Assembly: GCA_964481345.1 (NCBI GenBank)
Contig: CAYZTC010000008.1
Span: 1 to 50,039, forward strand
Source of the DNA: an uncultured Candidatus Saccharibacteria bacterium
Lineage (GTDB): Bacteria > Patescibacteriota > Dojkabacteria > SC72 > JAFGCJ01
DNA length: 50,039 nt
Direction of reading: 5' to 3'
In this document: positions 3,913 through 43,161 of the stretch, in pieces
Numbering within the stretch: the first letter of the stretch is position 1
Layout of the letters: each line of letters opens with the position of its first letter
Program-made: the position numbers and the translations under genes
The notes under the pieces: generated by a model
Told to the model about the DNA's origin: nothing
Seen by the model: the letters and a program-made list of their open reading frames with translations, nothing else
The model's database searches: none

Positions 3913-5919
3913 CTATTTCGTGTCCAAAAACTCTGAAAGATCAGGTAGGTCCTTCTTTACCCGACTAAACTCTGAGTTATTTTCATACTCTTGCTCATAA
4001 TATTCATAGTCCTCATCAGGACTTAAGTGAATGAACTCCGAATTACTTTCATACTCACTTGCGTATTCCTCATATCCTTTACTATCAATGTTCTTAAGGA
4101 TTTCAATAAACTCAATTTCAGTGGAAAGCCTTTCTTCAAAATCCTCCAAGTCTTTCCCCTGAATTTCAGGAAGAATACCAAGAAATTCAGAATTCTTTTC
4201 ATACTCGCTCTCAAAATCTTCGTATGAATTATTTTCAATACTTTTTTTCGTATCAAAAAATTCAATATTAGAGTTGTATTGATTACTATAATAGTCATAT
4301 TGGTACACTCCTGGAGAAAAGCTAGAAGAGATGTTATAAAACAGTAAACCAATCAATGCAAACAAACCCACGACAATGACTATAACAACCTCTGAAAGTA
4401 TCTTTACTATTTGATCCGATATTAATCCACTAAGAATGGTAACTATAACTCCAATACCAGGAATTGTGGAGGCAAAAATACGTGAAAGAACTTTCGTCAC
4501 AGTTTGCCTTATCATAAAAGCCCAATTCTTACCAAAAAAGGTTGTCGCGATTTTTGAGAAAGCATTATTAACAAACTTTGATACTCCACTAAAATGCCGT
4601 TTGAACTGCTGACCGATTGATAATTGATATAGTTTATAATAAAAAGAACTCCCATCAACTTTTTTTCTCTTGGTAGACAGCTTTAACCAGAAACCTCCAT
4701 CAACTAAAACACCTTTAAATAAGTTCCATGGATGAAGATAGTAAGTAGATCCAACTAGTTTTCCAATTGCTGAACTGTTTTCAACAAACACTGATTCTTT
4801 TACACCTGTAGGAAGTCCATCTTTATCCACAACATCCCTAAACTTAAAAGATCCCAGCCTTAAAGCCTCATAATCCCCTGAAATTATTGCATCTAAAAAC
4901 TCCCTATCAAAAACACCCTCTTTAAGCCACCTTGCGGTAAATAACAATTTTCCCACCCTTACACCAGATGTCCTATCTTCCCCACCTGATAAACCGGTTA
5001 GCACTCGCATTATTTTCTTGTATTCTCTAGGTAACTTGTCAGCAGCTCTAAGTGACAGTAGATTCAATGCCGCAGCTTTATAATTTGAATACAGTCTAAA
5101 TTCATCTTTTTCAAAAACACCTTTGTTATCTGAATCATCCTCACCAAAGGTAAGATTTTTTACAGTAGCTGCAATTTCTTTATTCGTTCCAAGTTCATCC
5201 AGTAACACTGAAAGTCGTGACTTCACCCCTTCAGCTTTATCTTCTTTCTCCAGTTTTATAATAATTTCCTTTACTTCCTTCCTAATCGATCCTTCATCAA
5301 GTTTTTTATCCTTAAACATCTTTTTTAAATCTTGAATCACAAGCTCAGAAATTACTGATGAATATTTATCTAAAAACAGCCTCTTTTGAAAAACGCCATC
5401 CTTATCATATTCACTTATATCTGGAAGTAAAAAGGAGCTACCTATCACCCTAGAGATTTCGGACGAAAATCCAAGCTTCCGAGCCATAATTGAAAAGAGA
5501 GCCGAATTCATCGTGTTATTTGTAAATCCTCCAATACCTGCCCATTTTCTATCTTGCTTATACTTGTCAAATGAATACTGAATATTTCCAATTGGATCTG
5601 ACAGAAACTTAAACCCCGATGTCAATCCAAAACCAAATTTAAACCCTTTTGTCTTAAAATCACCAGCATACTTACCATCTTTGATCAACTTACTCTCAAA
5701 AACTTGGGTGCTTTGGTCAATCTGCCTCAACAAATCAGAAATTACAGTATCAACAGGATATAGCACTGGCTCTGAAATAATCTCCTCAAGACCATCCTGT
5801 AAATTATTATCTCTTACCTTTTCGGGTTTCTTATCTCTACTTTTTTTAAGTTTTTGTGTCTTAAATACAAGATCAAATAGACTTGCATACACATCTTGTG
5901 GCTTTTTTCTCTCTCCCAT
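3913..5919 (-). CDS. Hypothetical membrane protein with acidic C-terminal repeats
   Basis: 668-aa ORF, hydrophobic segments near aa 485-530, three to four YExxxxEYExNSEF-like repeats. Confidence 0.75.
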   Translation of the reverse strand: MGERKKPQDVYASLFDLVFKTQKLKKSRDKKPEKVRDNNLQDGLEEIISEPVLYPVDTVISDLLRQIDQSTQVFESKLIKDGKYAGDFKTKGFKFGFGLTSGFKFLSDPIGNIQYSFDKYKQDRKWAGIGGFTNNTMNSALFSIMARKLGFSSEISRVIGSSFLLPDISEYDKDGVFQKRLFLDKYSSVISELVIQDLKKMFKDKKLDEGSIRKEVKEIIIKLEKEDKAEGVKSRLSVLLDELGTNKEIAATVKNLTFGEDDSDNKGVFEKDEFRLYSNYKAAALNLLSLRAADKLPREYKKIMRVLTGLSGGEDRTSGVRVGKLLFTARWLKEGVFDREFLDAIISGDYEALRLGSFKFRDVVDKDGLPTGVKESVFVENSSAIGKLVGSTYYLHPWNLFKGVLVDGGFWLKLSTKRKKVDGSSFYYKLYQLSIGQQFKRHFSGVSKFVNNAFSKIATTFFGKNWAFMIRQTVTKVLSRIFASTIPGIGVIVTILSGLISDQIVKILSEVVIVIVVGLFALIGLLFYNISSSFSPGVYQYDYYSNQYNSNIEFFDTKKSIENNSYEDFESEYEKNSEFLGILPEIQGKDLEDFEERLSTEIEFIEILKNIDSKGYEEYASEYESNSEFIHLSPDEDYEYYEQEYENNSEFSRVKKDLPDLSEFLDTK

Positions 5920-15036: not shown

Positions 15037-15089
15037 AATTCTGATTTCTTAATTTTAATGAGCAGTATTTATCATATGTCAAAATTCTA

Positions 15090-15470
15090 CTACGATCTAT
15101 TTGGTTTTCTATTTGACCATTCCCTTAACAAGACTTCAAGATACAATTTCCCCTCTGTCTCTCCCCTTTCCCTCAAGTTTAACAATCTTTTTTTCATAAG
15201 AACACCTACAACCTGAACATCACAACCCTCAAATATTTTATTAAAACCATCAGAGAAACAGCTCATAAAATCTTCACTCTCTAATTGAGTCAACCAACTC
15301 TGGATAACAGAATAAAACTCAACCTCCCCGTTACCAGAGTCCTCATCTTGTACCAGGCGAAAGAGCCGTAGAATTATTTCATCGGCAGCATTATAGCTTT
15401 TTTCCTGGATCGATTCTTCACTAGGAAAACTATTACCCTCTTGCCCCCCAATAATTATAGGATTTCTCAT
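15090..15470 (-). CDS. Hypothetical protein
   Basis: 126 aa from ATG 15470; shares SEESI..DE(I/L)I with 14668..15036. Confidence 0.6.
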   Translation of the reverse strand: MRNPIIIGGQEGNSFPSEESIQEKSYNAADEIILRLFRLVQDEDSGNGEVEFYSVIQSWLTQLESEDFMSCFSDGFNKIFEGCDVQVVGVLMKKRLLNLRERGETEGKLYLEVLLREWSNRKPNRS

Positions 15471-15549
15471 ATTATTATTTTTATAAAATTTTAACGAACA
15501 GTATTTTACCACTTAGTGCTTGCAGTGAACCCAACCTGTTGTACTTCAC

Positions 15550-15576
15550 GTGCTTGCACTGAGCTTGTCGAAGTGC
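15550..15576. repeat. 23-bp REP-like insertion at the tRNA-Leu 3' end
   Basis: GTG-CTTG-CAC-TGAGCTTGTCGAA-GTG; GTGC repeated 23 bp apart. Confidence 0.75.
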
Positions 15577-15658
15577 CGAGGACAGGATTTGAACCTGCAC
15601 AGGATATACTCCCACTACCACCTCAAGGTAGCGTGTCTACCAATTCCACCACCTCGGC
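15574..15658 (-). tRNA. tRNA-Leu(GAG)
   Basis: GCCGAGGTGGTGGAATTGGTAGACACGCTACCTTGAGGTGGTAG...GCAGGTTCAAATCCTGTCCTCGGCA; long variable arm, CCA not encoded. Confidence 0.95.
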
Positions 15659-15771: not shown

Positions 15772-15800
15772 CCATGAAGCGAATTTATTCTGCTTCATGG
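15772..15800. terminator. Hairpin downstream of mutL, possible terminator
   Basis: CCATGAAGC ... GCTTCATGG 9-bp stem; no U-tract on the minus strand. Confidence 0.35.
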
Positions 15801-15816
15801 GTATTTTACCTGAATA

Positions 15817-17601
15817 TTAGGTTCTGTTGAAGTGTTTATCGATTTCTGATGGGTTTAGTTTCCACACTATTGGACGACCATGAGGACAACTATATGAGTT
15901 CTCACATTTAGAAAGATCCTCTAATATTTGCTTTGCCTCTAGTTTAGAAATCTTTTTATTTGCCCTTACAGAGGAATGACATGCCATAGTAGCTATTACT
16001 GAATCCCTATATTCATCAGACAATATTTGATCTTTATTCTCAAACTCCTCAACCTCTTTTAGCCTCTCAATGACATCTTTCACTAACAAAGATATGTCTG
16101 CACCTGAAAGCAAACTCGGAATAGCCTTTACAGATACTTTTTTATTAATATCAAACTCAAACCCAAACCACCGTAAAGCCTTTATATATTCTTTAATAAA
16201 ATCTCTATCCGAAGCTGTAGCATCTAGCTGAATAGGTACAAGCATTGACTGTGACTCAACTCCTTTACCAGAATATTCCTGAAGCAACTTTTCAAAACGA
16301 ATCCTTTCCGCAGCAGCATGCTGATCAATAATCAGAACATCTCCTTCCTTTTCAGTAACTATATATCTATTTAGCAACTGAACAACTTCTCCATTATCCC
16401 CCTTAAAAGAAACCTTATATTCATCCAAATCACTATCCTGAAGAATAATTCTGGAGAATTCCATGCTTTCTTCTACATCATAGTCCTTTCTTGATCTGAA
16501 TAAGTCCACCCTCGATTCATCCTGGTCAACATCTGGTATTTGTTTTTCCTCCTGACCAACTCTAAACAATTCCTCTCTATCTTGCTTATCTGACTTTGAA
16601 ACACTCCCCAAAGCCCTGTTTACACTTATCTCAATTGCAGAATACACTCTGTACGGATTTAAAAACCTTATTTCAGATTTCCTCGGATGAACATTAACAT
16701 CAACGAGTCGCGGTAAAATGTTTATCGATAACACAAATGGGATTTTTGTTCCCTTCGGTATAAACCTTCTTGCACCCAAACTTACTGACTTTACAATTCC
16801 AAAGTCCCATATATTTCTTCCATTTACGAATATGTATTGTTCAGAAACCCTTTTGGAGAAGTGTTTAGGATGACCTACGTATCCACCAATTGTAATTCCT
16901 TCACCATCATAAAATACAGGGAAAAACTCAACATCTTTTATTAAACTCTTTAGCCTTTGCGGATGAACAGTACCCTTCTGAGAATCTTTTATTGCAGGCA
17001 AGTTGTACACTTGTTTGCCATCGTTTTCAAGTACAAAATGCACATTTGGATTAATTAGGGCTGTAGGTAGAAAGACATCTAATATTTTTCTATATTCAGT
17101 TCTTGGAGATTTTAAAAACTTTTTTCTAGCAGGAATATTGTAAAAAATGTCTTCAACAACAACTGTAGTACCATTATCCCTTGAAGTAGTTTTTACAGCA
17201 GACTTTTCACCACCCTTTACTTCAATCATATTTCCACCCGTCTTTGATGAACCACTGTCTCTACTTAAAATGCAAATCCTTGAAACAGCAGATATTGAGG
17301 ACAGGGCTTCGCCCCTAAAGCCAAGTGTGTTAATATTTATTATATCTTCAATATTCTTAATTTTTGACGTTGAATGTGAATCCAAACATAATCCCAAATC
17401 TCCTTTTGAAATACCAACCCCATCGTCACTGATCTCAATCAATGATATTCCACCATTTTCAATCTTTATATTTATATTTCTTGCATCAGCATCTATTGAA
17501 TTTTCAATTAATTCTTTCAAGACAGACGCAGGTCTTTCTACAACCTCTCCTGCTGCTATTTGATCTATTACCTTTTGATTAAGCTTATGTATTTTCCCCA
17601 T
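15817..17601 (-). CDS. mutL: DNA mismatch repair endonuclease MutL
   Basis: IAAGEVVERP, GFRGEAL, DVNVHP, DQHAAAER, CPHGRP; start at MGKIH. Confidence 0.97.
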   Translation of the reverse strand: MGKIHKLNQKVIDQIAAGEVVERPASVLKELIENSIDADARNINIKIENGGISLIEISDDGVGISKGDLGLCLDSHSTSKIKNIEDIININTLGFRGEALSSISAVSRICILSRDSGSSKTGGNMIEVKGGEKSAVKTTSRDNGTTVVVEDIFYNIPARKKFLKSPRTEYRKILDVFLPTALINPNVHFVLENDGKQVYNLPAIKDSQKGTVHPQRLKSLIKDVEFFPVFYDGEGITIGGYVGHPKHFSKRVSEQYIFVNGRNIWDFGIVKSVSLGARRFIPKGTKIPFVLSINILPRLVDVNVHPRKSEIRFLNPYRVYSAIEISVNRALGSVSKSDKQDREELFRVGQEEKQIPDVDQDESRVDLFRSRKDYDVEESMEFSRIILQDSDLDEYKVSFKGDNGEVVQLLNRYIVTEKEGDVLIIDQHAAAERIRFEKLLQEYSGKGVESQSMLVPIQLDATASDRDFIKEYIKALRWFGFEFDINKKVSVKAIPSLLSGADISLLVKDVIERLKEVEEFENKDQILSDEYRDSVIATMACHSSVRANKKISKLEAKQILEDLSKCENSYSCPHGRPIVWKLNPSEIDKHFNRT

Positions 17602-17628
17602 AGTCAGCCGTATTTTAGCAGAAAACCT

Positions 17629-17657
17629 GGGGTCTGACCCCGGCGGGGTCAGATCCC
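17629..17657. repeat. REP-like palindrome doublet
   Basis: GGGGTCTGACCCC-GGC-GGGGTCAGATCCC, GC-rich in an AT-rich spacer. Confidence 0.7.
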
Positions 17658-17669
17658 ACATCTATCTCT

Positions 17670-17862
17670 CTGGCTAATGTCATTGCAAAGTTAAATAAAC
17701 CTACATTAGTTTTGTCGCACAATAAAACCTTAGCAGCACAGCTTTATGAAGAGTATAGAGAGTTTTTTCCAGAAAATGCTTCTTGTTGCCCAAAATCTTG
17801 ATTTTGAAAATGGTACTGATCTCAGAGGTCAAATAAAAGATCTTAGATATTTACTGAAATAG
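17670..17862 (+). pseudogene. uvrB: uvrB relic (N-terminal and C-terminal pieces joined)
   Basis: [37 protein letters not shown], then in the next frame [24 protein letters not shown]-stop (UVR domain-like). Confidence 0.88.
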
Positions 17863-18008
17863 ACTATTTAGCAATTTCGATATAAAATCCCAACATGCAA
17901 TTAAAAGCAAGCAATCAAAATCTATCCTCTTGGTGGAACCTCTAACAATTTAGAGGAAGCTTGCTATAACTATTTTCCAATCATATTAATTTGAAGCAGC
18001 CTTCCTTA

Positions 18009-19491: not shown

Positions 19492-19521
19492 GAAGTGCTC
19501 ACAGTGAGCCCGTCGAAGTGC
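19492..19521. repeat. Degenerate 23-bp REP-like insertion at the tRNA-Gln 5' end
   Basis: GAAGTGC repeated at 19492 and 19515; core TGAGCCCGTCGAA. Confidence 0.65.
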
Positions 19522-19592
19522 GGGATCGTCTAACGGTAGGACACCGGCCTTTGAAGCCGTGAATCTTGGTTCAAATCCAAGTCCCGCAACCA
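19519..19592 (+). tRNA. tRNA-Gln(TTG)
   Basis: TGCGGGATCGTCTAACGGTAGGACACCGGCCTTTGAAGCCGTGAATCTTGGTTCAAATCCAAGTCCCGCAACCA. Confidence 0.96.
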
Positions 19593-40392: not shown

Positions 40393-40563
40393 AGACAGAC
40401 CTCGACAAGGACTGTCCCCATCAAAAGAAACACTAAATAAATCAGCTTCACAACCAAATCATGAACTTTCAGCAAATATTGTAAATTCTTTGAAAAGAAT
40501 AAAACGCTAAATTAACAACGTTTTCCTAATACAAGTAGAGACAGCCCTTGACTAGGACCGTCC
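40393..40563. repeat. Two 25-bp imperfect palindromes in direct orientation
   Basis: AGACAGACCTCGACAAGGACTGTCC (40393-40417) and AGACAGCCCTTGACTAGGACCGTCC (40539-40563), 21/25 identical. Confidence 0.7.
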
Positions 40564-41637
40564 TTAAGAAACTGTATCACCACCACCAGTCTTACTCTCT
40601 TCCGATTTCTTACTACTTTTCCTCTTTGAAACCAAATAGATAATCACACCAACAGCTATTAAAACAAGAACAATACCAAGAACGACTAAAATGACTCCCC
40701 AATTTGTACCTTCCAAATCTCCATTCCCTACGGCTATATCCTCTCCAGGTCCGTCCCCGCTACTTTCCTCCACACCGGCCTCTGACGTTTCAGCCCCAGA
40801 TATCTTTAAAGAATAGTTAATAATTTCGCTACTACACCACATATCACAAACAACCGCAACATAGACATAATCATCTTTCTCTGCAGTAACAGATGCTTTG
40901 ACTATTGCCCCTGGATTTGAAGCATATTCCTGTACTATAACTTCTCGATCACTGTCATATATATACAACTCAGGTTGTGCCTCCTCAGAAGGCGTTATCT
41001 CAATGCCAAGAGTTTGACCTTCTTCAATATTTATCTTGTAATAATCATCTTCATCACTACCTTCCTCCCCAGAAAGATAGCCTGTATAGGTTCCAGACCC
41101 AATATTTAGCGCACTGCCAAAACCATCACCTACATCTGACTGTGTTTCTGCATCATAACGATTAGTCACCGACAGATCCAAGCCAAATGAATCTATGTCC
41201 CATGTATCACTCCCCACTTTGAGATAATATTTATAGGAATCTTCATCTGCATTCGGAAGCCAAGAAACTGTAATGGATTCTTCTATTCCATAAATTGCAT
41301 CACTTGCTTCAACTAACTCCTCTTCATCTTCACTATACAAACTTAAAATTGCGAAAGCACCATAGTCAGGACTGGCAGGAGCGAATGTCCCTATTACCTG
41401 CAGCTCTTGCCCAGGTTTTAGACCATCAATATAAAAGTATACCATCTCACCATCCTCTAAGCCGCCACCCTGGTATGACCCGACTTCTATCTCAACTGCA
41501 CTTTCAAAACTATCTCCGCCCTCTACTGAGGTTTGAGCATAGACATTATTCTGCATACCCATGATCCCGACCAGAAACACCCCACAAAAGAAACTAATAA
41601 CTACCTTTGCCAAGGAACTTACCTTATGTTTTATCAT
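40564..41637 (-). CDS. Acidic surface protein with two PPC-like domains and a C-terminal membrane anchor
   Basis: Signal peptide (VYA-Q), repeats GDSFESA..I..GSY.G / GDGFGSA..I..GTY.G, DEDDYYKI, TM plus basic tail. Confidence 0.75.
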   Translation of the reverse strand: MIKHKVSSLAKVVISFFCGVFLVGIMGMQNNVYAQTSVEGGDSFESAVEIEVGSYQGGGLEDGEMVYFYIDGLKPGQELQVIGTFAPASPDYGAFAILSLYSEDEEELVEASDAIYGIEESITVSWLPNADEDSYKYYLKVGSDTWDIDSFGLDLSVTNRYDAETQSDVGDGFGSALNIGSGTYTGYLSGEEGSDEDDYYKINIEEGQTLGIEITPSEEAQPELYIYDSDREVIVQEYASNPGAIVKASVTAEKDDYVYVAVVCDMWCSSEIINYSLKISGAETSEAGVEESSGDGPGEDIAVGNGDLEGTNWGVILVVLGIVLVLIAVGVIIYLVSKRKSSKKSEESKTGGGDTVS

Positions 41638-41833
41638 ATCTTTAAACTAAAAAATGTTATCTGTAAATAGACTACTTATCTTCACTTTTATTGTCAAGAC
41701 ACTCATCATTAATTGTTACTGAAGAAAATACCAGAGTCTAATAAGCTTAACCAAATTATAAACATATCAGAGTAACCATTTAGGTCGTACTGGACTCGAA
41801 CAAGTGATCAGTTGACGCCAGGAAATAAGACAT

Positions 41834-42155
41834 ATGTATTTCGTGTGCGAATTTCGTAGTTTGGGGAATTTTGCAGTAAACCTGATAAATCATGACCGAA
41901 ATACCAAGCTCGAATTACTAATTACTCGAATTTTGCAACAGCAAAATTCATGGGTGATACTGAACTTGTCCTTCGGCAAGCTCAGGACTTAAACCTGTAA
42001 TCTGTCCACACTTCGAAGTGAGATACATGTATTTCGTGTGCGAGTTTCGTAGTTTGGGGAATTTTGCAGTAAACCTGATAAATCATGACCGAAATACCAA
42101 ATTCGAATTTCTAATTACTCGAATTTTGCGACAGCAAAATTCATGGGCGATACTG
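41834..42155. repeat. 129-bp tRNA-linked direct repeat (41834-41962 and 42027-42155)
   Basis: 193-bp period, six mismatches counted by eye; each copy ends in the tRNA-Val 3' terminus. Confidence 0.95.
41964..41990. repeat. 23-bp REP-like insertion inside a tRNA 3' fragment
   Basis: GTCCTTCGGCAAGCTCAGGAC with ACTT repeated 23 bp apart. Confidence 0.7.
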
Positions 42156-42218
42156 GAATTGAACCAGTGACCTTCACAATGTCAATGTGACGCTCTAAAC
42201 CAACTGAGCTAATCGCCC
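42144..42218 (-). tRNA. tRNA-Val(GAC)
   Basis: GGGCGATTAGCTCAGTTGGTTTAGAGCGTCACATTGACATTGTGAAGGTCACTGGTTCAATTCCAGTATCGCCCA; CCA not encoded. Confidence 0.95.
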
Positions 42219-42266
42219 ACTAATTAATTCTGCTAGACTTTTTCTTTCAAGTTCCTTTTCAATTCA

Positions 42267-42320
42267 CTAAACCTCCGCCAGAGGCGGGTCCGCCTTTAGC
42301 GGAAACTGAGCTAATTGCCC
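42267..42320 (-). pseudogene. tRNA-Val(GAC) 5' fragment interrupted by a 30-bp palindrome doublet
   Basis: CTAAACC + TCCGCCAGAGGCGGG-TCCGCCTTTAGCGGA + AACTGAGCTAATTGCCC versus tRNA CTAAACCAACTGAGCTAATCGCCC. Confidence 0.8.
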
Positions 42321-42442
42321 AAAACTTAGCAGAATGAATATTCCTTTATAACAACTATTAATATTTGACAGAACAAACTACCAGCCATACGAAGCATTAC
42401 TTCACCAAAGACTACGTAAATGTGAACCTCATGCGTAGTATA

Positions 42443-42479
42443 GAGCTAATCGCCCTTCGACAGGCTCAGGGCAAGCCCT
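42443..42479. repeat. Second tRNA-Val 5' fragment with a 23-bp REP-like insertion
   Basis: GAGCTAATCGCCC (42443-42455); minus strand GGG-CTTG-CCC-TGAGCCTGTCGAA-GGG; GCCCT repeated 23 bp apart. Confidence 0.8.
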
Positions 42480-42536
42480 AAATACCTGTATATTAAGATC
42501 TTAATAATATCCAACTTTTAAAGATATTCTGTCGAA

Positions 42537-42557
42537 GCCCTGAGCGAAGTCGAAGGG
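42537..42557. repeat. REP-like element downstream of clpP
   Basis: GCCCTGAGCGAAGTCGAAGGGC. Confidence 0.7.
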
Positions 42558-42579
42558 CCCCGTCGTAAAAAACATTACT

Positions 42580-43161
42580 TCACTTGATGATCTTATCAAC
42601 AATCCCATACTCTAGTGCCTCTTTCGAAGACATGTATTTATCTCTATCTGCATCCTTCTCAATCTTTGACTTAGACTTTCCTGTTTGCTTTGAAAGAATA
42701 GTATACAAACGATCTCTTATATCCAAAAGATTTTTTGCAGTAATCTCAATATCCGATGCCTGACCTTCAAGACCACGAACTATAGGCTGATGAATCATAA
42801 TTTCAGCATTGGGAAGAGCATATCTTTTCCCTTTTGTACCAGAAGAAAGTATCACTGCTGCCATACTTGCTGCAGCACCTACAGCTATAGTAGATACATT
42901 ACACTTTACGTAGTTCATTGTGTCTACTATGGAAAGTCCAGCGGCGATCTCACCACCATAGCAGTTGATATACATCTTTATATCTTCAGAGGGATTTGCC
43001 TTTTCAAGATAAAGAAGCTGGGCAATAATCAGATTTGCCATATTAACATTCACCTGGTTTCCAACAAAAATAATCCTATCCTCAAGTAACCTTGAGTAAA
43101 TATCATAAGCTTTTTCCCCTCTTGAGGTCTTTTCAATAACTGTAGGAATCAACATTGCCAT
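42580..43161 (-). CDS. clpP: ATP-dependent Clp protease proteolytic subunit
   Basis: YDIYSRLL..RII, AASMA, IMIHQP, GQASDI, DRD. Confidence 0.98.
   Translation of the reverse strand: MAMLIPTVIEKTSRGEKAYDIYSRLLEDRIIFVGNQVNVNMANLIIAQLLYLEKANPSEDIKMYINCYGGEIAAGLSIVDTMNYVKCNVSTIAVGAAASMAAVILSSGTKGKRYALPNAEIMIHQPIVRGLEGQASDIEITAKNLLDIRDRLYTILSKQTGKSKSKIEKDADRDKYMSSKEALEYGIVDKIIK

Follow-up and report, generated by a model that had tools for sequence, protein, structure and literature searches.

A tRNA-Leu(GAG) gene in the genome of an uncultured Candidatus Saccharibacteria bacterium is joined at its 3' end to a short palindromic repeat, located at positions 15550-15576 of a 50,039-nt stretch of DNA that we refer to, at its full length, as the window. 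The window is contig C8 of an assembly (G000) of 824 kb in 15 contigs, with 36% G+C and 97% complete. The repeat reads GTGCTTGCAC TGAGCTTGTCGAA GTGC, and its letters and coordinates, which we checked, are those given in an initial annotation made from the sequence alone. It ends in TGC, which is complementary to the discriminator base and to positions 72 and 71 of the tRNA. The core of the repeat, TGAGCYYGYCGAA, occurs four times in the window, at 15560 and 19505 and on the minus strand at 41972 and 42456; 0.13 occurrences are expected, and a count of four was reached in none of 100 shuffles. All four cores contact tRNA sequence (tRNA-Leu, tRNA-Gln and two pieces of tRNA-Val), as the initial annotation had described, and its view of a short, repeated, palindromic and non-autonomous element also held, the window encoding no enzyme for the element. 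At the tRNA-Gln site, where the core lies one base 5' of the gene, GAAGTGC at 19492-19498 is repeated at 19515-19521 with a spacing of 23 nt. We read the feature as one copy of a micro-repeat resembling the repetitive extragenic palindromes (REPs), with a probability of about 0.6. The features of the four sites are compiled in Table 1.

Table 1. Repeat units and adjoining tRNA features in the window
Feature	Position	Strand	Remark
Repeat unit	15550..15576	+	tRNA-Leu site
Upstream mini-palindrome GTGCTTGCAC	15550-15559	+	Part of tRNA-Leu unit
5' arm GCACT	15556-15560	+	tRNA-Leu unit
Loop GAGCTTGTCGA	15561-15571	+	tRNA-Leu unit
3' arm AGTGC	15572-15576	+	tRNA-Leu unit; overlaps final 3 nt of tRNA-Leu, opposite strand
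tRNA-Leu(GAG)	15573/15574-15658	-	Discriminator 15574; 3' end faces CGAAG side of unit
Degenerate unit adjoining tRNA-Gln 5' end	19492..19521	+	Loop GAGCCCGTCGA at 19506-19516
tRNA-Gln(TTG)	19519..19592	+	Begins with TGC, shared with the end of the unit's 3' arm
Tandem paralogous copy: tRNA-Val 3' part and ~115 nt of downstream flank	41850..42035	-	'Filled' partner
23-nt insertion in T-loop region of diverged tRNA-Val 3' copy	41969..41991	-	Compared with intact paralogue
19-nt hairpin TCCT-GAGCTTGCCGA-AGGA	41969-41987	-	Within the insertion
Intact tRNA-Val(GAC)	42143..42219	-	'Empty' partner
Unit GGGCTTGCCCT-GAGCCTGTCGA-AGGGC	42443..42478	-	Loop 42457-42467; joined to tRNA-Val 5' fragment
13-nt 5' fragment of tRNA-Val, GGGCGATTAGCTC	42443-42455	-	Fused to unit
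Variant hairpin GCCCT-GAGCGAAGTCGA-AGGGC	42537..42558	+	Opposite orientation; distal half of ~125-nt cassette

In total we identified 15 strict cores in G000, and the reversed control pattern gave 0. Each copy takes the form of a hairpin with a 4-bp stem, NNN-T / A-N'N'N', around an invariant 11-nt loop, GAGCYYGYCGA, the whole unit being 23-27 nt long. The T-A pair of the stem is fixed, and the other three pairs are variable but covary; stems in G000 include GCACT/AGTGC, GCCCT/AGGGC, GTCCT/AGGAC, GTGAT/ATCAC and GTTCT/AGAAT. A short flank 5' of the stem is conserved as CTYG in G000, as GTCA in G381, a repeat-rich genome of the same phylum, and as CCGYTCR in most other phyla. Covariation was assessed against 1000 shuffles from the number of fully paired copies, those with Watson-Crick pairing at all three variable positions. 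Fully paired copies make up 11 of 15 in G000 (shuffle mean 2.8, maximum 8), 24 of 28 in G381 (mean 7.8, maximum 15), 60 of 86 in 35 other genomes of the phylum (mean 18.9, maximum 29; 11 paired triplet types) and 67 of 92 in other phyla, where the copies were not selected by the query (mean 10.6, maximum 19; 16 paired triplet types). The stem triplets covary in all four data sets, and pairing past the fourth stem pair falls to about 45%.

The repeat is a multi-copy family that forms tandem arrays and inverted doublets, is patchy within the phylum and is present in many phyla. In a sample of the phylum, matches were found in 148 of 401 genomes (a tally that counts the unpublished genome G189), with very uneven copy numbers and rare control matches, and within the order of G000 one of 40 relatives has the motif, in a single copy. 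A 14-nt pattern is present 87 times in G381, 50 times in G109 and 30 times in G336, and the 11-nt loop alone 109 times in G381, the highest number found; many of these copies lie at contig ends, and they are arranged in tandem arrays with a period of 26 and in inverted pairs 42-43 nt apart. The exact 19-mer CCCTGAGCYTGTCGAAGGG is present in at least 120 contigs of a species collection, for which we calculate about 35 chance matches in the whole collection. Judged by contig titles, the matches listed cover at least 15 phyla, with Bacteroidota, Cyanobacteria, Actinomycetota, Alpha-, Beta- and Gammaproteobacteria, Nitrospirota, Myxococcota, NC10, Planctomycetota, Acidobacteriota, Chloroflexota, Armatimonadota, Vulcanimicrobiota, Latescibacterota, Zixibacteria, Lentisphaerota and several small-genome candidate phyla among the titles. 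These listed matches comprise 120 loci with 258 distinct cores, usually in the form CCGYTCR-NNN-T-loop-A-N'N'N' and often as inverted doublets 25-65 nt apart. Large replicons of Sphingobium, Nitratireductor and Sinorhizobium carry the repeat without annotation, and the loop is identical to the letter in tiny-genome bacteria and in Sphingomonads, Actinomycetota, Cyanobacteria and Chloroflexota. A phage collection gave marginal coding matches only (E 0.7), and no match was obtained in E. coli genomes at E up to 1 with a 41-nt query, the length of which limits sensitivity. On one Vulcanimicrobiota contig (L127, core at 4488) the unit is directly followed by the T-arm-like sequence GCGGGTTCGATTCCCG, for which ARAGORN made no tRNA call; this may be a hairpin within a tRNA fragment outside the phylum of G000. 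Literature searches with the core in both orientations gave unrelated primer matches only, those with its translated peptides gave nothing relevant, and searches under REP plus the phylum name, or under RAYT (REP-associated tyrosine transposase), tRNA and hairpin terms, gave no description of the family. The core strings are absent from the main text of PMC12306157 and PMC3733652, the search covering this text and not the figures and supplements that hold the REP consensus sequences.

In G000 the repeat is closely tied to tRNA genes. Five of the 15 cores lie 1-4 nt from the end of an intact tRNA, for which we calculate an expectation of <0.1 (45 tRNAs in 824 kb, even if only non-coding DNA is considered). 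Of the other ten copies, three adjoin 5' fragments (of tRNA-Val, tRNA-Asp and tRNA-Pro), a pseudo-tRNA and the RNase P RNA hold one each, and two are distal halves of cassettes described below; the last three comprise one in nusG, one flanked by convergent genes and one upstream of a gene. By genomic context, 12 of the 15 are non-coding, with one each in nusG, RNase P RNA and the pseudo-tRNA. Elsewhere in the phylum 4 of 91 cores are located within 16 nt of a tRNA end. All ten cores found within 16 nt of a tRNA, in six genomes, point their CGAAG side at the tRNA (9 of 9 if two cassette paralogues are taken once), six being same-strand copies at a 5' end and four opposite-strand copies at a 3' end, so that on the forward strand of the element the cloverleaf-forming sequence always comes next. 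With a single orientation in the DNA, leaders carry the forward hairpin and trailers its complement, which favors a cause at the level of DNA; the rule speaks for oriented insertion or oriented tolerance, not for one active RNA sequence. The 3' arm extends 2-4 nt into the RNA gene at tRNA-Lys, tRNA-Ile, tRNA-Val, tRNA-Leu, tRNA-Gln and RNase P, and we infer that such overlaps with RNA genes in G000, of 1-4 nt, represent microhomology at the junction.

The initial annotation had summarized the sites as X-CTYG-X'-core-X, with a duplication spaced by 23 nt, and had proposed that the stem is copied from the target or guides the choice of target, X being derived from the tRNA. The pattern is present in G000: the three nucleotides after the core recur 23 nt upstream in 8 of the 15 copies, compared with a mean of 2.2 and a maximum of 6 in 1000 shuffles. 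Upstream and downstream X agree at five independent sites (the cassette family, RNase P, tRNA-Leu, tRNA-Gln and C1:178516), and together with the overlap between 3' arm and RNA gene at five tRNAs and RNase P, and with three loop-adjacent pairs that vary freely in all phyla around a loop that does not, this is what can be said for copying or guidance. Yet the eight copies show two values of X only, GGG and GTG, and four of them are paralogues of a single cassette of about 125 nt, which consists of the reversed variant hairpin GAGCGAAGTCGA, an AT-rich spacer ending in TAAACAGGTATTTAG, the unit and the tRNA start GGGCG. This cassette is located upstream of tRNA-Lys (C7), of tRNA-Ile (C10), and of the fragments of tRNA-Val and tRNA-Asp (C9); hairpin-spacer-hairpin cassettes number five in G000. 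Another of the eight, at C1:178516, is not beside any RNA gene. The duplication is moreover no property of the family, since upstream X was found in 0 of 28 copies in G381, 3 of 86 in other genomes of the phylum and 0 of 92 in other phyla. A scan of all offsets gave no relation between flank and stem that recurs in these three sets (CPR80 and PAN each showed one small excess, at differing offsets), and the proposal has no support outside G000.

Stems beside tRNAs elsewhere bear no relation to the tRNA. Other genomes of the phylum have ATCCT/AGGAT beside TGGGGTGAGC and ACTCT/AGAGT beside TGCGCCCGG, and the stems at tRNA-His, tRNA-Arg, tRNA-Glu and tRNA-Pro match the tRNA by 0-1 nt at most. In most phyla the conserved CCGYTCR flanks the variable triplet on its 5' side, and the triplet is therefore internal to the element; at an orthologous site the triplets change solely through inversion of a whole doublet. 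As a rule for the family, copying from or guidance by the target is not supported, and we consider it very unlikely. X' and X are simply the stem of the family-wide hairpin: the stem appears to be the element's own, and the upstream X a local, lineage-specific feature rather than a signature of stem copying. Upstream X and X' could form a competing mini-hairpin with a tetraloop, X-CTTG-X', which would keep X' off the first bases of the tRNA itself.

At least once the element entered DNA as a 23-nt insertion. The two tRNA-Val paralogues in the window differ by exactly 23 extra nt, the 19-nt hairpin plus 4, within about 130 nt of 97% identity. At the place of the single ATTG of the intact copy, the insert is flanked by CTTG on one side and CTTA on the other, and these tetranucleotides are either an imperfect 4-nt duplication or else part of the element. 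MITEs are marked by terminal inverted repeats together with a target-site duplication; doublets of the repeat have inverted ends, and apart from the X repeat the other copies show no target duplication. The element also sits in the P3 helix of RNase P RNA and in nusG. P3 is 38 nt long in G000 and holds the unit, a portion of whose loop pairs as P3 itself; in four members of the same family P3 is a plain hairpin of 20-24 nt, and a fifth relative, G005, carries a much longer insert at this place. The copy in nusG is in frame in a lysine-rich N-terminal extension, where it is translated as GDTSASSALGS. An insertion is not definable here, as the extension of the relatives is of similar length and unrelated in sequence.

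An alternative is that the tRNA-linked copies in G000 did not insert independently but arose when a pre-existing hairpin was moved along with segmental duplication, gene conversion or integrase-type rearrangement at tRNA genes. The four GGGC copies have about 125 nt in common, including a second hairpin and the AT-rich spacer; at two loci a 13-nt 5' fragment of a tRNA is followed by a common segment of about 100 nt and then by a real tRNA; a 27-nt direct repeat, made up of a promoter region and 8 nt of tRNA-Pro, brackets one hairpin; and the tRNA-Val 3' end is tandemly duplicated. We nevertheless hold such an origin to be quite improbable, because the copies at tRNA-Leu, tRNA-Gln, tRNA-Pro, RNase P and nusG have nothing in common beyond the unit, and because it leaves unexplained both the abutting copies in five other genomes and the difference of 23 nt within near-identical paralogues.

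Several other sequences accompany the tRNA genes of G000. Fragments of the tRNA-Val 5' end are nested on the minus strand at 42230-42455, upstream of the intact tRNA; one, at 42443-42455, measures 13 nt, and another, near 42300-42320, about 20 nt. The segment of about 100 nt (ATACT...CGTATGGCWGGTAGTTTGTTCTGT...) that follows the 13-nt fragment is also present at the tRNA-Asp locus (C9:13447-13545), with the real tRNA next to it, and the fragments of tRNA-Val and tRNA-Asp look like the result of repeated replacement of the tRNA 5' end together with its promoter. The 27-nt direct repeat is found at C5:9862-10044 (L005) and consists of a promoter-like sequence and the first 8 nt of tRNA-Pro(GGG); directly downstream of a RayT-like gene, it brackets the hairpin unit and about 55 nt. 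The sequence GTGTTTTTCTGATAGGATRT, preceded by TTCACAAA, occurs in four copies (C2:84549, 97365 and 101690, and C5:9862), three of them just upstream of tRNA genes (two tRNA-Ala, one tRNA-Pro), and is possibly a common tRNA promoter. A third hairpin family, CTCTG-GAGC(N3-4)GCGA-TAGAG, has five copies (window 43736, C1:102657, C2:101283, C3:2448 and C6:20925), of which one is near a tRNA-Ala.

The element is old and stable in place, and its triplets change via rearrangement of whole units. In a strain from another study (run X5) the neighboring genes (15796-17990) differ at 144 of 2195 positions (~6.6%), and the tRNA-Leu unit is retained, with 3 differences in 168 nt and no gap over 15491-15658. 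In the one contig of this strain, 18 other letters take the place of 452 nt at 15038-15491, where in G000 a small gene lies on the minus strand immediately downstream of tRNA-Leu. All 11 Sphingobium replicons spanning one locus between convergent genes have a doublet there, at flank identities of 83-100%; in an alignment of six of them the units are nearly unchanged within scrambled intergenic DNA, and in two of the six the doublet is inverted, so that the CCC and GGC units swap places. Another Sphingobium site was too diverged to give a footprint.

Such retention is also what would be expected if the hairpin were kept for work in cis, either as an RNA signal (for processing, insulating, terminating or stabilizing) or as a DNA site for a universal host factor, its spread being secondary. 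The identity of the loop across phyla, the conserved units in the diverging Sphingobium intergenic region, the retained tRNA-Leu unit and the precise, oriented placement at tRNA ends all agree with this, and the upstream X copy could serve to release the tRNA 5' end from X'. However, the forward hairpin lies in 5' leaders and its reverse complement in 3' trailers, and no single RNA sequence can be active at both. In the stem, G-T mismatches are as rare as A-C mismatches; there is no wobble bias, and neither strand is therefore marked as the one that forms RNA. In Rfam 15 no curated model matched the hairpins at the gathering score, where only tRNA and RNase P RNA were found, nor did the hairpins match at E up to 0.1 (nine genome loci) or up to 5 (41800-42700). 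No terminator-like or promoter-like site was found at the two copies scanned. Further, 39 of the 40 relatives of the same order have no match, so that the hairpin is not required for tRNA maturation in the lineage, and copies are found within a coding frame and in a pseudo-tRNA. We therefore judge a function in cis as the primary reason for the repeat to be unlikely. Hammerhead, K-turn, T-loop mimicry and restriction-site palindromes were considered and dropped, with no test result in their favor.

Genes for HUH enzymes of the Y1 type, which handle REPs, are present elsewhere in G000, which carries six Y1_Tnp (RayT-like) genes, none of them in the window. The two that were tested match NF047646 (NCBIfam 'REP-associated tyrosine transposase') at 61-64 bits, below the cut-off of 80 bits. 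Across the phylum, Y1_Tnp genes occur in 83 of 147 motif-bearing genomes and in 105 of 253 genomes that lack the motif (odds ratio 1.8), and in 29 of 37 genomes with at least five copies, related genomes not being independent in either count. For the IS91-type Y2_Tnp none of five motif-rich genomes gave a match, a weak test as the control genomes were silent too. A different palindrome, GGACWGTCC, is present in 19 copies in G000, often as pairs about 150 nt apart; its sites include 40409-40420 and 40555-40566 in the window, C2:77059-77610, C4:52907/53410 and pairs on C3 and C6. It lies on both sides of two RayT-like genes, which is the classical REP/RAYT arrangement.

In its arrangement the repeat most resembles REPs and their composites, the bacterial interspersed mosaic elements (BIMEs) and REPINs (REP doublets forming hairpins) associated with RAYTs. 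Shared traits are short imperfect palindromes of 20-40 nt in tens to hundreds of copies, tandem clusters, inverted doublets of two units with different stems, mostly intergenic and often convergent-gene locations with occasional intragenic copies, and long retention at orthologous sites. Repeated intergenic palindromes were found in G000 (15 copies), G381 (109), G109 (50) and G336 (30), and clusters with inverted doublets in the G381 arrays, in the doublets of many phyla and in the five G000 cassettes. There are also differences. According to PMC3733652, REPs carry a terminal GTAG (or CGTC) tag, and those described there are lineage-specific. Our hairpin repeat has neither tag, the tetramer before the stem being CTTG, GTCA or TTCG; its 4-bp stem is free and its 11-nt loop invariant across phyla, and a RAYT gene flanked by the hairpin was not found (six G000 genes; four genomes).

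Other mobile elements share single traits with the repeat. The hairpins of IS200/IS605 elements are recognized as single strands by the Y1 transposase TnpA, with strand-specific, oriented insertion beside a short target, and the orientation rule of the repeat is of the same kind; unlike these elements, the repeat occurs as single units or as doublets with a spacer of 15-70 nt and does not bracket a transposase gene with a left and a right end; no fixed target tetranucleotide could be shown beside it, and G381 has no Y1 match. The Rickettsia palindromic elements (RPEs) are likewise inserted into genes without destroying them, as is the case for the copies in frame in nusG and in RNase P RNA. 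RPEs are 100-150 bp long and confined to Rickettsia, whereas the hairpin unit has 23-27 nt and is found in many phyla, and its target duplication is ambiguous at best. Rolling-circle elements of the IS91 family target CTTG or GTTC; CTTG lies directly 5' of the stem in 8 of the 15 G000 copies, and the consensus CCGTTCG of other phyla puts GTTC one base further 5', but no long element is attached to the hairpins, and Y2_Tnp was not matched in the weak test above.

Taken as a REP-like element, the repeat would spread as DNA by way of a single-stranded hairpin intermediate, and a protein acting in trans would recognize the invariant loop, as HUH/Y1 enzymes do with REPs. In the phylum of G000 it would land, or perhaps be tolerated only, flush on the end of the tRNA acceptor stem with its CGAAG side toward the tRNA. 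One may go further and imagine that a universal or horizontally spreading protein docks on the loop and inserts or maintains the hairpins across phyla, with the three free stem pairs as a programmable address for oriented placement at tRNA ends in small-genome bacteria and the upstream X as an anti-pairing device for the benefit of tRNA folding, a combination that we think decidedly unlikely.

A number of observations weigh against a REP-like element. The hairpins are weak as DNA (-3 to -4 kcal/mol, no better than shuffles), and the case for pairing therefore rests on covariation, not on energy. Loop identity across phyla is unusual for REPs and could point to a conserved host function. The tRNA enrichment that the initial annotation had led us to expect is strong in G000, at intact ends and more so with the fragments counted, but absent in G381 (0 of 30 cores) and outside the phylum, where one of 258 cores among the matches listed abuts a tRNA, and that one (L068) is titled as the same small-genome phylum. 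Alleles differing by 23 bp, also predicted, are represented by one pair of paralogues, one partner of which is a decaying pseudo-copy; an orthologous empty site was not found in the contigs of four runs for two units or at the Sphingobium sites, and recent mobility is thus not shown. As to the enzyme, the predicted flanking of RAYT/Y1 genes by the motif was not borne out: of the six RayT-like genes in G000, one (C5:9403-9840) lies less than 100 nt from the hairpin, with the unit about 90 nt downstream, and two are flanked on both sides by GGACWGTCC instead. The motif is not within 1.5 kb of four Y1 genes examined in four genomes, G381 with its 109 copies has no Y1_Tnp match, and our own hidden Markov model gave no Y1-like open reading frame in 80 of the at least 120 loci from other phyla. 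No gene family recurs beside the hairpins at the 120 loci among the matches listed, where generic families only were seen, and searches for Y1, Y2 and neighboring genes did not find a cognate enzyme.

Repeats of the REP type have been thought of as lineage-specific, each with its own RAYT; here a single loop extends across phyla, with a free stem and no enzyme attached. A 23-nt insert can blur the boundaries of tRNA and RNase P RNA genes in the annotation of these genomes. Peptides translated from the repeat may be common among the 'hypothetical proteins' of databases. If the family is indeed undescribed, it would make several matters testable: what it is that recognizes the loop, why the repeat is tolerated within RNase P RNA, in nusG and at tRNA ends despite scarce spare DNA, and whether 'hypothetical proteins' in many annotations are spurious translations of the repeats.

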